From: Kiritimatiellia bacterium
GTDB taxonomy: Bacteria > Verrucomicrobiota > Kiritimatiellia > RFP12 > UBA1067
Reading direction: 5' to 3'
Assembly (NCBI GenBank): GCA_050949565.1
Contig: JBMNFY010000019.1
Span: 1-64,000 of the forward strand
DNA length: 64,000 nt
In this document: piece by piece, positions 6,650-21,980 of the stretch
How the letters are laid out: every line of letters starts with the position of its first letter
How positions within the stretch are numbered: position 1 is the stretch's first letter
Program-made: the position numbers and the translations under genes
The notes under the pieces: model-generated
Database searches by the model: none
What the model was told of the DNA's origin: nothing
The model's input: only the letters and a program-made list of their open reading frames with translations

Positions 6650-7642
6650 TCACTGCTTTCTTTTTCGGAGACCACGCCACAGGAGAAGGGCAACGAAGAT
6701 ACCCGCGCCGACACCGACAGCGAGCGGGACAATTGATCGCTTTTGCGCCGGTGGTGGAACATCGGGCGTTTCCGCGATATGAGGGGCTTCGGTTTTTTCT
6801 GGCACGTTGTTGGTGGGCGGGGGTGGCTCGGTCATGGCGGGTTCATGGGTGAAGGCGGGCGGGGGTGGAGGGAAGTCCGGCATGACAAGCCCGTATTTGG
6901 AGGGATCGACGCTGCAGACGGGCTTTCCGTCCGCGTCGAACGAGACGGCCATCGTCACCAGTTCGGGCGGGAGGTTGGTCGCGTCTCCGTATTTCGCGAG
7001 GGCCTGTTTCAGCAGGTCGTAGACATAGACGGCCTGCGGGCCGGTGTTCGCCACGGAAGGCAGAAAAGGCGGCTCGTTGGTCGACCAGCAATATAATCGC
7101 GTCTTCGAAAGATTTAGCACATTCGTGCCTGAGGCGCGCGCTTTCAGGATTCGGAGACTTTCCAACCCCGCATTCTTTGCAAAATCCAGCTTGGAAGGAA
7201 GTTCCGCGTATTTCTCAAGCAGAGGGAGATCGCTAGCATCCCCTTTTTGCGAGAGATACAACAGGCTGTAATCTACAAACCGCCAATCGGGATTGCCACT
7301 CTTTGATACGAGGAACTCCCTCGTCAGCCGTATGATGTCAGCGTCCCCGGGCGAACACATGTTGACACCATCAATTCTACAGATTAACTCCGTCAGAGTA
7401 GAATAGGTGTAGTTGTCATAAGGTCTGCCTTCCTGCAATATCTTTTTGTATGCCGGAAAATCGTGATATCCGGTGGCCGCCTGGTCTGCCAACCACTGTG
7501 CAGCGGGGATCTCATCAATTGATGCAGTCCATAATCGCACAACCCGCGCCATTGACTCGTCCTCAGGCAAGACATTGATCTCTCCAAAAGTCGGGAAGAG
7601 TGCCCAGAATGCGAATATTGACATAAGCCGTGTTTTTTTCAT
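6650..7642 (-). CDS. secreted, C-terminally anchored hypothetical protein; candidate immunity partner of the zincin tip
   Basis: AGGAGG RBS; signal-like MKKTRLMSIFAFWALF; Pro-rich linker; C-terminal TM plus RKRK; ATG overlaps the stop of the HExxH ORF. Confidence 0.65.
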   Translation of the reverse strand: MKKTRLMSIFAFWALFPTFGEINVLPEDESMARVVRLWTASIDEIPAAQWLADQAATGYHDFPAYKKILQEGRPYDNYTYSTLTELICRIDGVNMCSPGDADIIRLTREFLVSKSGNPDWRFVDYSLLYLSQKGDASDLPLLEKYAELPSKLDFAKNAGLESLRILKARASGTNVLNLSKTRLYCWSTNEPPFLPSVANTGPQAVYVYDLLKQALAKYGDATNLPPELVTMAVSFDADGKPVCSVDPSKYGLVMPDFPPPPPAFTHEPAMTEPPPPTNNVPEKTEAPHIAETPDVPPPAQKRSIVPLAVGVGAGIFVALLLWRGLRKRKQ

Positions 7643-8710
7643 TGTACATGTCCTCCTGATCGTAGAGTTGGAATTTGCTCGACATACAATCGTTTGGAAG
7701 CGCTCACATCCATGAAGGGGGAGGCTGTTGAAAACATGAGATTGCATTTATCTGATACGTGGGCGTAAATGCCGAGCGCATGACACAGTTCGTGCGCGGA
7801 AACGAACGGCGCTATCTGGCTGGCCGAAATGAGGCAGTGGTCCGTATACGGGGCATCCAAAGGATCTGTATACCAATAGGATGCGGTTGTGTGCCCCGCG
7901 ACTTCGGCTGCCGGCGTGCTCTCTTATGCCGGGCACAAAGATCAGGCAGCGGTTGCTGGCGCCGTTCGTGACTGAGGCCAGAGCGCTTCGTGAACGACCG
8001 ACACCGGGCGATCTGCGTGAGAGAGCTGGAACTTCCAGATTGTTCGTCGACGCAACATGCCAGTTATCGACATCCACCTGCGGCGGCGCGTCGAAGTACA
8101 CAAGCGAGCCCATCTCCACGGTGATGTTGGCCTGTGCGAACCTCTCCTTGGCCGAGCGTGACCTGTGCACGAGCGCGGACAGCGTGTCGATGCAGGCGAC
8201 GCCGTTGGTGCGCATGATCGCCACATCGACGCCCACGGACTTGACGTCCACGCCGACCGGAGCGCTGAACACGTTGGTCTGCCCCCACCCGTCGACGTAT
8301 GACCCGCACACGCTGCTCAAGAGTTGCGACAGGAAGAGGCGGTTGGTCGAGTCCGGCGCGACACCGTACACGGTCGTGTCGAAGTGCGCGTCATCCCAGT
8401 CCGAGACCAGCAGCAGGTTCGTGGACGCGAAGACGCCCGGCGAGACGCGGGGCAGCGTCATCACGCGCGATGCCGCGTCATACGCGGAATCGCCCGGATG
8501 CTCAGTCCAAAGGACGACCTCAACCGACTCGGCATCCGCGCGGCGCTCGTCGGTCACGCGGACGCGGAAGCGGTCCGCGTCCGCGCTTATGAACTCGCTC
8601 TGACGGAACACGGCGTTGGTCACGATATAACTGCCCGCCTGGACATACCCGTTGGAAAACGCGCTTTCCCATTTCGCGACTTGCAGGCTATTTGTGACGA
8701 CCGTAGTCAT
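7639..8710 (-). pseudogene. orphan C-terminal cassette with a zincin-like metallopeptidase motif (frameshifted)
   Basis: ORFs 7748-8710 and 7639-7860 overlap in different frames; the distal part has AHELCHALGIYAH plus a Met-turn-like NLM; no signal peptide. Confidence 0.6.
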
Positions 8711-8727
8711 GCTCTTTGGGGTTTAAT

Positions 8728-19800: not shown

Positions 19801-21367
19801 GCGCCCGGCGGGAGCGTCATGCCGTCCCCGAACGCCGCCGCCCCGGCGCCGCCGGGCTGGAACGCCGCATAGCCGCCGCCCGCCGTCAGCGAGAGCCGCA
19901 CCCAGCCCCCTTGGGCCGACCACAGCGAGACCGGCCAGGCGGCCCCCTCGTCCAGCCAGAAGGTCCATGTCCCGGTCCTGTCGATCAGGAGCCGCCGGCT
20001 TCCGACCGCCAGGATGGCGGGGGTTGCCGGAACGGCCGTGACCTCGACGGTGACGGGGAACATCGCGGCCGAGCCGTCGTGCCGCAGGGGCGTGCTGCCG
20101 TCGTAGAACGGGTCGGAGCACAGAAGCCCCTCCAGCCAGTCGGGGAACCCGTCGCCGTCGCTGTCCAGTTCCGCGTCGGCGCCGGCCGCCAGCCCGTTGA
20201 GGTCGGCGAGGATCCGCTGCCGCACGGCATCGGGGTCGGTCGCGGGGGTCAGCGGGGCGGGGTCGATGCCGTCCCGCAGGCCGTCGCCGTCGCTGTCCGG
20301 GTCGAGAGGGTCTGTGCCGAGGGCTCATTTCCGCGCCGTCGTCCACCCCGTCGAGGTCGGTGTCGGCGCGGCGCGGGTCGGTGCCGTGGATGAAAAGCTC
20401 GTCGTGGGTGGAGAGGCCGTCGCCGTCGTGGTCGTCAATGGCCGGGTCGAGCAGACCGAAGGCGCGCCAGCACAGCTCAAGGCCATTGGTGAGCGCGGAG
20501 GGATCGTTGAGGGCGAAAACCTCGCCGCCGCCGTTGTGCAGGGCGCCGACCAAGAGGTTGGTGAAGGCGTGGCCGGGGGACCGGAGCGCGGAGCCGGCCG
20601 GTATTTTGTACCGGAAGCGGAAATCGCCGTTTCCGAAGAGCTCGGACTGGAAGGAGACCGGGCAGTTGGTGTCGCGCCCGGCGTAGAGGTTCTCCCAGGT
20701 CAGCAGCAGGCCGCCGGAGGGCGTGGGCGCGTGCCAGAAGCGCCCCTGCGGCGGCACGGTGCCGAGGCTGCCGTGCAGCGGCGCGAGCAGGCTGGCGTTC
20801 GCGGGCACGGAGGAGGGGGACGGCGTGGACAACGGGTCCCGGAACGACACCAGCCCCGAGCTGGAGACGTGCAGGCCCTCGACCTGGTTGGTGCCGAGGG
20901 TGAAGGACCAGCCGTTTGTCTGCAGCCAGAAGGTGTCCTCGGCCACGCCGTACACGGTCCACGGCGCGTGGACGATCGGCGTTGGAGGGCGCGGCGCGCC
21001 AGGCGGCGGGGTTGGTCGCGGCGGAGACGAGGGCGACCCCGGCCGCGTACTGGCCGGGGGTGAGGGAGCCGGGGGTGGCGCCGCCGTAAGGGGACGCCGC
21101 CGGGGACGGCGCGCTCCCTGCGGCCGGCCCTTGGTATTGGGCGGCGGGGGCGGGCGCCGGGGCGCCGGCCGGAGCGGACGGCTTGGAGCCGCCGTGGATG
21201 CAGAGCGCGACGACGAGCATCAGGACGAGCGCCCGGTCAGCGCGGGGCAGGGCGCGGAAGTCGCGCATGCGCTCGCGGAAGACGCCGCCGCCGGTCTCGC
21301 AGGCGCGGGCGATGAACCACAGCACGAAGGCGATGCCGAGGAACCAGAAAAGCATGGCAGGTGTCAT
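16802..21367 (-). pseudogene. large (~1500 aa) membrane-anchored modular protein with a C-terminal CD-clan (caspase/CHAT-like) peptidase; at least 6 apparent frameshifts (real or assembly error)
   Basis: Continuous protein-like path across frames: two N-terminal hydrophobic segments plus GGSK, Pro/Ala linker, DxDGDG repeats, CxxHxC repeats, then a tip with WIHNGHG and LVFMNTC. Confidence 0.7.
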
Positions 21368-21383
21368 GTCCGTGTCCCCTTCG

Positions 21384-21980
21384 TCATTTGATGGTGATGC
21401 GCGCGCCGTCCGGGGCGAACACGGTTTTGATGCGTTCCTGCGGCGCGTCCGCGCCGCGCGCGGTGACGCGCAGGGTGTCCCATGTTCCGGGATGCAGCCA
21501 CTCCGGGAGGGGCGGCGGGGGGAGGCCCGCGAAGGTGACCGCGCCGTCGCGGTCGGTGAAGGCCGGGGGCAGACAGACACCCGAAGCAGTGACGCGGATG
21601 AGGGCGGTGAGCCTCTGCGTGCCGTTGGACGAGGCGGCGGGGACGGCGTGGCGGGCGCGCAGGCCGCGCGGCGACAGGAACCACCCGCCGCGATCCCATC
21701 CGATGGCGAGGTCGGTCTCGCCCGCGTCGAGCACGCCGTCCGCCGGGGCGGTATCACGGCCCAGGCAGACCTGGACGTGGTTGGAGGGCGTGGCCTCGAA
21801 GACAAGCTCAAGGCGGAAGACGCGCGGGCCGCCGGGGGCGGCGGGCAGGGCGTGCGTCGCCGACACCTCGCGGTCGGCGGTCGCGGGCTCCGGCAGGCGC
21901 GGCACCTCAAGGGTGGCGGCACCCGCCGCCAGCGCGGCTGCGGTGATGGCAGTGGCTATGGTTATTACGTTGTGTTTCAT
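21384..21980 (-). CDS. small secreted hypothetical protein upstream of the large modular protein
   Basis: Signal peptide MKHNVITIATAITAAALAAGA; RBS; ends 16 bp before the next start; C-terminus DGARITIK. Confidence 0.7.
   Translation of the reverse strand: MKHNVITIATAITAAALAAGAATLEVPRLPEPATADREVSATHALPAAPGGPRVFRLELVFEATPSNHVQVCLGRDTAPADGVLDAGETDLAIGWDRGGWFLSPRGLRARHAVPAASSNGTQRLTALIRVTASGVCLPPAFTDRDGAVTFAGLPPPPLPEWLHPGTWDTLRVTARGADAPQERIKTVFAPDGARITIK

Follow-up and report, generated by a model that had tools for sequence, protein, structure and literature searches.

A putative polymorphic toxin-immunity array with clan CD and HExxH protease tips and exported PepSY-type partners in a Kiritimatiellia bacterium

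We analysed the first 64,000 nucleotides of contig JBMNFY010000019.1 (GenBank assembly GCA_050949565.1) from a Kiritimatiellia bacterium; this whole stretch is called the window below, and it is present in anaerobic-digester and bioreactor metagenome runs from 11 studies. Between positions 21980 and 6650 the window carries an array in which a gene for a large, probably membrane-anchored protein ending in a peptidase-like domain (the tip) is followed by secreted-type genes and by further, orphan tips, and which we read as a probable member of a polymorphic toxin-immunity family. All genes of the array, apart from those of insertion sequences (ISs), are on the minus strand, where neighbours either stand 10-24 nt apart or share an ATGA overlap. 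This agrees with the co-orientation and tight spacing described in the original prediction, a reading of the letters of this DNA that had proposed a protease-toxin and inhibitor system with an unrecognised stalk.

The array begins with a small protein with a signal-like N-terminus and without known family (the partner, 21384-21980, taken from the open reading frame (ORF) list). It is followed by the large gene, whose conserved part (18327-21367) encodes two N-terminal hydrophobic segments, a NIDO-like domain, TSP3-like repeats, a Cys-rich region and a beta-rich spacer, here together called the stalk, and whose variable C-terminal cassette (16802-18326) encodes a pre-tip region and a predicted clan CD cysteine-peptidase tip (a 205-aa ORF at 16802-17419). 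Next come PepSY-A (15739-16791), an exported protein of predicted tandem-PepSY fold and putative cognate inhibitor or immunity protein of the tip, its tandem duplicate PepSY-B (14644-15714), and an orphan tip (14174-14647), a 157-aa ORF corresponding to the C-terminal part of a second tip type. The putative cognate of this orphan, PepSY-C, is divided into an N-terminal part (13680-14159) and a C-terminal part (9898-10554) by ISs at 10555-13679. The array closes with a serpin (8728-9876), an orphan HExxH, zincin-like cassette (7639-8710) and a last gene (6650-7642). The order of genes is thus the one originally claimed, but the large gene consists of seven frame segments in this assembly and not of one ORF.

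Base composition changes sharply along the array. GC content is 0.71-0.75 at 18500-22000, where stalk and partner lie, and 0.51-0.57 at 14000-17000, which holds the tip and the secreted genes, so that the GC-rich stalk indeed gives way to lower-GC cassettes, as had been noticed from the letters. The 4.66-Mb genome has a GC content of 0.60; stalk and partner are therefore 11-15 points above the genome mean, with a GC content at third codon positions (GC3) of up to 1.00, and the cassettes 3-9 points below it. Gene conversion among paralogs is one possible cause of the excess in stalk and partner.

Pfam scans of all ORFs and frame segments gave no family for the partner, the tip, the stalk segments, the HExxH gene or the last gene, and the TSP3 match in the stalk stayed below the Pfam cut-off. 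In the ESM Atlas the partner was found only in unnamed clusters, one record of which begins at residue 18 and agrees with the ATG at 21980, and the stalk domain was nearest to NIDO/dockerin clusters with a score of 0.76, which is a lead only. Hydropathy and reading of the sequence showed two hydrophobic segments at the N-terminus of the large protein with a positively charged loop between them. Sec would insert the stalk through these two helices and, given the positive loop, the rest of the large protein would then lie outside the cytoplasm. The pre-tip region is homologous to P0016 and P0017, and the tip cassette is also carried by other stalks (P0015, P0026, G031 and a Lentisphaeria locus).

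The strongest evidence on the nature of the array came from its paralogs. The partner has four paralogs in its own genome (91-96% identity), each upstream of a stalk gene, and partner plus N-terminal stalk are 81-96% identical across these four other loci (A-D), while the ends of the large genes differ. Paralog A shares 94.2% DNA identity with the window over 18326-21082; the identity stops abruptly at 18326, beyond which paralog A has an end that is remotely homologous to the tip (hhalign probability 80%, E 1.4e-5) and is followed by two PepSY-like genes. Paralogs B and C have only the first ~1.1 kb in common with the window (87%), and carry HExxH ends and their own secreted genes downstream. 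In paralog D the common part is again the first ~1.1 kb (81%), the end consists of RHS repeats and a tail, and small genes lie downstream. The original prediction had seen no Rhs or YD motif, and this holds for the frames of the window gene itself but not for the family, as RHS repeats follow the same N-terminus in paralog D and in long proteins of the related genome described below.

More distant stalks or partners were found at three further loci of the same genome, E, F and G (G000 C17:1100000-1111500, L008; C15:77449-80399, L010; C2:49480-54226, L009), all with HExxH tips; the partner-like genes of E and G are 31% identical to the partner. Locus E contains one full gene and three orphan tips; behind each orphan stands a gene for a protein of 279-344 aa whose C-terminus forms a transmembrane tail. 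Locus F has one small gene downstream. Locus G contains one orphan tip and a direct fusion of a partner-like gene with a tip, which looks like a recombination remnant.

We also looked at a genome of the same order (G011, 10 contigs) with 15 copies of the stalk domain, 11 of which were examined. The 11 proteins are pairwise 83-98% identical (61-68% for the diverged L013) up to the earlier breakpoint of each pair and then unrelated, and the breakpoints are nested, at about 387, 675, 1095, 1178, 1967 and 2300 aa. RHS repeats occur in the four long ones (L011, L013, L015 and L018), behind the same N-terminus. A hydrophobic N-terminus was found in 6 of 10 immediate downstream ORFs, and in L012, L017 and L019 the large gene looks truncated. 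Partner and stalk with variable C-termini and with differing secreted genes downstream, for which the original prediction had recommended a search, are therefore present at four other loci of the host genome, and G011 has stalk copies with unrelated tails.

The large gene ends in the motifs HNGHG...FMNTCDS. No Pfam family matched the tip at E <= 0.1, including the clan CD families C14, C25, C11, C13 and CHAT. A structure model of the tip with a mean predicted local distance difference test (pLDDT) of 82.4 nevertheless matched, in VIA-align, the CHAT protease DdvA (Z 11.2; root-mean-square deviation (rmsd) 3.1, 148 aligned), SAVED-CHAT (Z 11.0), separase (Z 10.4) and the gingipain RgpB (Z 9.8), and the best Foldseek match of the model was again SAVED-CHAT (8.7e-4). 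In the predicted structure, therefore, the tip has the caspase-hemoglobinase (clan CD) fold. The model places H41-G42 after strand 35-39 and C83 after strand 77-81, and the two strands are adjacent; His41 and Cys83 are presumably the catalytic residues, an assignment that follows clan CD topology. In the alignment of tips Cys83 is invariant, HxGHG is kept wherever the segment is covered, and the motifs W-I/V-H-x-G-H-G, L-V-F-M-N-T-C and N-Y-I/V-G-W-D-C are conserved. The His/Cys peptidase tip first proposed from the letters is thus backed by the modelled fold and by the conserved His-Gly and Cys. In every long relative the tip domain is C-terminal.

PepSY-A and PepSY-B, which are 82% identical, are both secreted-type genes placed directly after the tip. 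A word-indexed search gave 9 relatives of PepSY-A. The Pfam PepSY profile (PF03413) gave 16.2 bits with PepSY-B, compared with a cut-off of 24, and no match with PepSY-A; the PepSY-like paralogs of locus A scored 15.7 and 23.0 bits, also below the cut-off. The model of PepSY-A (pLDDT 74.4) matched the C-terminal domain of YpeB with Z 13.4 (215 aligned, rmsd 6.9), the M36 propeptide with Z 8.1, and the M4 propeptide and YpmB with Z 6.9 each. PepSY-A is thus modelled as a tandem PepSY protein, as in YpeB. PepSY domains reportedly inhibit peptidases. When tip and PepSY-A were predicted as a complex, the interface score ipSAE was 0.62, 0.76 and 0.81 in three runs, while the best of 3 controls reached 0.00; that mark is reached by 58 of 80 solved complexes and by 2 of 110 mismatched pairs. 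At least 80% of the contacts recur from run to run, pLDDT is 80-83 for the partner chain, and Cys83 lies in the interface. The co-folding suggested in the original prediction thus separated the cognate pair from the controls (0.76 against 0.00), and the predicted complex supports binding of PepSY-A to the tip.

We asked how constant this pairing is in 18 loci (17 metagenome loci and the G031 contig) with 22 copies of the tip. A PepSY-like gene directly follows 21 of the 22, and the remaining copy lies at a contig end. The same pairing was found in all five loci of a collection of species genomes, one of which is again the G031 contig; all five belong to the Planctomycetes-Verrucomicrobia-Chlamydiae (PVC) group, namely Verrucomicrobia ADurb.Bin070, Kiritimatiellae and Lentisphaeria (32% identity). 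Moreover, the matrices of pairwise identity of tips and of PepSY proteins are correlated with r = 0.96, a value that none of 2000 permutations reached. For example, L027b and L031 are 87% identical in the tip and 93% in PepSY, and L004 and L035 60% and 57%, so distinct tip types accompany distinct PepSY types. On the Lentisphaeria contig a 249-aa ORF on the opposite strand, which looks like a transposase, stands just after the tip/PepSY pair (L042 4981-5730).

The family is patchily distributed. The partner occurs in 10 of 201 genomes of the class and the tip in 2 of 201, and the tip has 30 representatives among 1.84 billion proteins. Within the searches made, the family is confined to Kiritimatiellia and related PVC bacteria.

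We then examined the frame of the large gene, whose seven coding segments are joined by six shifts, all +1; no stop codon occurs at the junctions, as judged by GC3 and three-frame reading, and GC3 is 0.85-0.98 in every segment. The 1-nt insertions lie near 20976, 20325, 19619, 19197 and 19008 in the conserved part and near 17395 in the C-terminal cassette. Contigs from four metagenome runs (X1, X3, X4 and X5, of four studies) were compared with the window. The letter at 17395, the letter at 19008 or 19012, and the letter at 20976 or 20979 are each omitted in all four runs, and the letter at 20324 is omitted in X1, X4 and X5, with X3 having no cover there. Compared with the intact paralog A of the same genome, a single frame of 1836 aa, the window has one extra base at each of 19008, 19197, 19619, 20325 and 20976. 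The homolog P0016, which is intact and 1386 aa long, runs parallel to the window gene through its frames, except for an unaligned Cys-rich stretch at ~19190-19600. In a contig of a related metagenome-assembled genome (L038), whose tip is 91% identical, the frame stays open over 1197 aa as far as the tip, and L021 and L023 hold pre-tip region and tip in one frame. Likewise, the predicted HExxH tip is present (HELCHALG, in the second frame), but its gene is shifted by a 1-nt insertion in the window near 7925 relative to a continuous frame in L024.

Considering that all six changes are insertions, with no deletions and with undiminished GC3, we regard assembly error as the most likely source of the six frameshifts in the large gene. 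Paralog D (G000 C10:291787-299168, L007) is also split, into two overlapping frames of 1291 and 1856 aa, which suggests a technical cause in GC-rich repeats. We rejected programmed frameshifting, since neither other assemblies nor the intact paralog show the six shifts. Homopolymer slippage was considered too and gave no clear pattern: three of the six junctions lie beside G/C runs of 4-5 bases, and in the comparison with paralog A the extra base falls within a run only near 19197 (GGG), the other four sites being A or T/C with ambiguous gap placement. The locus also serves as a caution, its apparent pseudogene being most likely an artefact of assembling very GC-rich repeated DNA.

The orphan tip is 44% identical to tip residues 48-203, with the Cys motif FMNTCES, and its ATG overlaps the stop codon of PepSY-B. 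The His segment is missing, hence it cannot be active alone. The third immunity-like gene of the original prediction exists as a third secreted paralog, PepSY-C, but is split here by a nested pair of ISs of 3.1 kb; its C-terminal part is 46% identical to PepSY-A residues 126-347 and 100% identical to the corresponding part in L024, which holds the whole gene, and another intact allele is P0008. The outer element is a DDE-type IS (10560-12004 and 13482-13680, 88.7% identical to about 11 other copies in the genome) and the inner one an rve-type IS (12025-13482, 99.5% identical to at least 8 genome copies). A joint of 10554 to 13680, which skips 3125 bases, was found in contigs of three of the four runs, and one of 12020 to 13482, which skips 1461 bases, in contigs of two runs. 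The insertion in PepSY-C is therefore real and varies between populations.

A palindrome resembling repetitive extragenic palindromic (REP) elements lies at about 10560-10650, within the inserted stretch, and translates as WHGHPARV. The element also occurs in paralogs B, C and D, where it separates the partner gene from the stalk gene (G000 C17:~1940890, C17:~1947840 and C10:~299170). In four metagenomes the contig depth of the element is 3923-9078, against about 20-150 in its surroundings. A joint of 10637 to 21383 in all four runs suggests that in other strains such an element follows directly after the partner stop codon.

The serpin has a signal-like N-terminus, is matched by PF00079 with 353.7 bits (1.7e-105, profile positions 3-370 of 370) and is the only serpin match in the genome; its position in the array resembles that of an immunity gene. 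The HExxH cassette has neither a stalk nor a signal peptide, and its stop codon overlaps the start of the last gene (ATGA), a putative immunity gene whose product has a signal-like N-terminus and, at its C-terminus, a transmembrane segment. The original prediction had called this last gene a secreted partner; it shows no homology to the partner, as the partner query gave no match to it.

Other strains and loci showed how the array is rearranged. L024 is an IS-free copy, with tip, one PepSY gene, orphan tip and whole PepSY-C. Its serpin, 100% identical to that of the window, keeps its place in the order and is followed by the HExxH gene and the beginning of the gene that closes the array. In L029 the second tip type occupies the main position and the orphan is a fragment of the first type, with PepSY-A. 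In L021 and L025 tip and PepSY gene are followed by a different HExxH orphan of 513 aa with a secreted gene of 253-260 aa, and then by housekeeping genes. Window positions 7989-8383 are 89% identical to DNA downstream of the PepSY genes of paralog A, and so the window and paralog A loci share both flanks and differ in their interior. A further PepSY-like gene lies at the far end of the paralog B array (C17:1928700-1929752, hmmsearch 1.7e-31), together with a short match to the C-terminal tail of the last gene of the window (C17:1927802-1927951), which indicates that the arrays are mosaics of shared cassettes. Three joints, 17006-14423, 15184-17218 and 14571-17739, might be recombinants between tip and orphan; their sides are only 30-57 letters long and they were not used.

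Two neighbouring genes complete the surroundings. Directly downstream of the array, an intact 913-aa gene (3850-6591, minus strand) encodes a gingipain-like Peptidase_C25 protein, also of clan CD, with a TSP3-like motif, DQDGDGF, in its C-terminus. On the other side, divergent from the partner gene, lies the gene of an 896-aa protein (22810-25500, plus strand) with passenger-associated transport repeat (PATR) motifs.

Taken together, we consider it probable (roughly 0.6) that the locus is one member of a polymorphic toxin-immunity family. What decides for this reading is that the paralogs keep partner and stalk and change their ends. A conserved N-terminus with differing C-terminal domains was found within the genome (A-D) and in G011; a co-varying gene, whose protective function is putative, stands immediately downstream of the tip; and standalone cassettes occur downstream in the window, at loci E and G, and in L021, L024, L025 and L029. 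The combination of stalk, variable tip, immunity gene and orphan pairs, which had led the original prediction to a polymorphic-toxin-like system, is thus supported by paralogs, breakpoints and pairing.

Several observations weigh against the toxin-immunity reading. Pfam recognised no secretion or delivery domain in the large gene beyond the sub-threshold TSP3 match, and a search for VipB, the sheath protein and the only family searched among secretion systems, did not find a type VI secretion system in this 92%-complete genome. In G011 only 3 of the 11 stalk genes examined have the partner upstream. Many of the 18 tip/PepSY pairs are close kin, and co-divergence is possible without a functional link because adjacent genes are inherited together. 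Regarding the frame of the large gene, among the differences listed for each run a deletion at 19193 appears for X1 and X3 and not for X4 and X5, and one at 19620 for X4 and X5 and not for X1 and X3, although absence from the listed differences is not evidence; and the copy in this genome may truly be a pseudogene. Finally, the main text of Zhang et al. 2012 (PMC3482391) describes most caspase-like domains in polymorphic toxins as releasing peptidases and not as toxins.

If the caspase-like tip were such an autoprocessing peptidase, it would cut the stalk so as to release or activate it, in the manner of the cysteine protease domain (CPD) of MARTX toxins, under regulation by PepSY, and the presence of regulated proteases (CHAT, separase, DdvA) among its top fold matches would fit. 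However, the tip is the C-terminal-most domain, so nothing beyond it is left to be released; it is also the variable part, with a dedicated and co-diverging partner gene, it exists in orphan copies, and the same text gives C-terminal versions a likely toxin role. We therefore regard a releasing peptidase as very improbable. We think equally little of the idea that the locus is a decayed relic whose frameshifts and ISs are real, so that no functional toxin is made in this organism. Counting the shift in the HExxH gene, there are indeed seven frameshifts within 14 kb, in an assembly that has the long genes nearby and paralogs A, B, C, E and F intact; most of the inserted bases do not extend a homopolymer, and the IS insertion is confirmed as a population variant. 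Against this, the six shifts of the large gene are all 1-nt insertions, without deletions or in-frame stops, unlike natural decay; GC3 stays high in each segment; the insertions are absent from contigs of four studies and from L021, L023 and L038; and paralog D is also frame-broken in this assembly.

Less far-fetched, and still unlikely in our opinion, is that the large proteins are not weapons but degradative or adhesive enzymes anchored at the surface, where they would serve in foraging or in remodelling the surface, with PepSY serving as a trans-acting foldase or inhibitor until deployment and with the variety of ends reflecting a variety of substrates. The PepSY fold resembles protease propeptides and YpeB, which holds SleB inactive according to the title of a 2026 mBio paper; moreover, a C25 gingipain-like peptidase gene adjoins the array, the habitat of the host is polymer-rich digesters, and delivery machinery went unrecognised in the Pfam and VipB searches. 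Against such enzymes stand the occurrence of the same N-terminus in fusions with RHS repeats, which have variable tails and small genes downstream, the orphan half-tips, which are promoterless and accompanied by their own partner genes, the abrupt identity breakpoints with interiors swapped between shared flanks, and the very patchy distribution. All of these are typical of toxin/immunity cassettes and argue against metabolic enzymes.

Under the toxin-immunity reading we propose the following mechanism. The conserved module, made of promoter region, exported partner, two-helix anchor, NIDO-like domain and TSP3-like repeats, would give rise to a giant extracytoplasmic protein, the C-terminal cassette of which would be exchanged by recombination. 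The clan CD peptidase tip may attack envelope or periplasmic proteins of neighbouring cells, and the exported tandem-PepSY protein encoded directly downstream would cover the catalytic Cys and protect producer and kin. The orphan cassettes (PepSY-C and the second type of tip, the serpin, and the HExxH tip together with the membrane-tailed protein) could be displaced or reserve toxin/immunity modules that widen immunity and recombine into the main gene, and the serpin perhaps is also an exported inhibitor that confers immunity. As the N-terminal module is joined to both Rhs and protease warheads, it is a candidate for a new trafficking route. Whether partner and NIDO/TSP3 stalk form an unrecognised contact-dependent apparatus of PVC bacteria, which would deliver the warheads into the neighbour's envelope with exported PepSY and possibly serpin proteins as immunity, is a tentative suggestion that we hold to be rather doubtful.

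If true, this would be an arms race of proteases and inhibitors in the periplasm, as opposed to the usual pattern of nucleases and cytoplasmic immunity, and the use of PepSY, and perhaps serpin, as immunity proteins would add to the functions known for two classic folds of protease inhibitors. The locus and its paralogs make the family traceable in this phylum, with up to 15 copies per genome, and tip 1 with PepSY-A and PepSY-B, and tip 2 with PepSY-C, provide a set of cognate and non-cognate pairs for studying specificity. Full-text literature searches gave no paper combining Kiritimatiell* with "polymorphic toxin", nor Kiritimatiellota with Rhs.

Compared with known systems, the array resembles contact-dependent growth inhibition (CDI) in having a stalk, an exchangeable tip with immunity gene, orphan arrays that keep upstream homology, and exchange between main and orphan position among strains (L029). 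In contrast to CDI, no two-partner secretion (TPS) domain, filamentous hemagglutinin (FHA) repeat or CdiB-like gene was found by Pfam in the frame segments and neighbouring genes, and the tips are predicted proteases with exported immunity proteins instead of cytoplasmic nucleases. As in Rhs/WapA-type toxins, the RHS repeats of paralog D and of the long G011 proteins lead into a variable tail, behind which come small genes whose products have hydrophobic N-termini, and orphan modules lie downstream. The window gene itself, in contrast, has no RHS/YD repeat in Pfam, and the search with a single family, VipB, gave no PAAR, VgrG or T6SS sheath. The window system is thus not CDI, and its own gene is not an Rhs protein.

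The modelled tandem-PepSY fold is shared with YpeB, the partner of SleB, and with the propeptides of M4 and M36 peptidases, and the PepSY protein of the window is predicted to sit on a hydrolase active site. What sets it apart is that it has a gene of its own, which stands beside that of a clan CD cysteine peptidase within a cassette array. The tip, for its part, has in its model the caspase-hemoglobinase fold of CHAT, separase and gingipain, in which one strand is followed by His-Gly and the next by Cys; unlike established clan CD peptidases, it has no match to a clan CD family in Pfam, is small (~250 aa) and belongs to a rare family.

The closest likeness is to the polymorphic toxins catalogued by Zhang et al. 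2012 (PMC3482391), whose main text lists Tox-Caspase, with the mostly alpha-helical immunity protein Imm57, and Tox-MPTase1-5 as C-terminal toxin domains. Like the window family, those toxins have a conserved N-terminus, a variable C-terminal toxin domain, immunity downstream and standalone cassettes, their caspase-like (H, C) and HExxH peptidases are C-terminal-most, and some carry RHS. The immunity type differs, as Tox-Caspase is paired there with Imm57 and the tip of the window with an exported protein of predicted tandem-PepSY fold, and the N-terminal module of the window (partner, two-helix anchor, NIDO-like, TSP3-like) is not among the trafficking modules in that text. None of the terms nidogen, thrombospondin, TSP3, PepSY and serpin occurs in 300,000 characters of its main text. 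The logic of the system and its warhead classes are known, since that catalogue already includes tips of the caspase-like and HExxH kinds; it is the stalk/partner module, immunity of the PepSY type and a serpin within the array that appear to be new.

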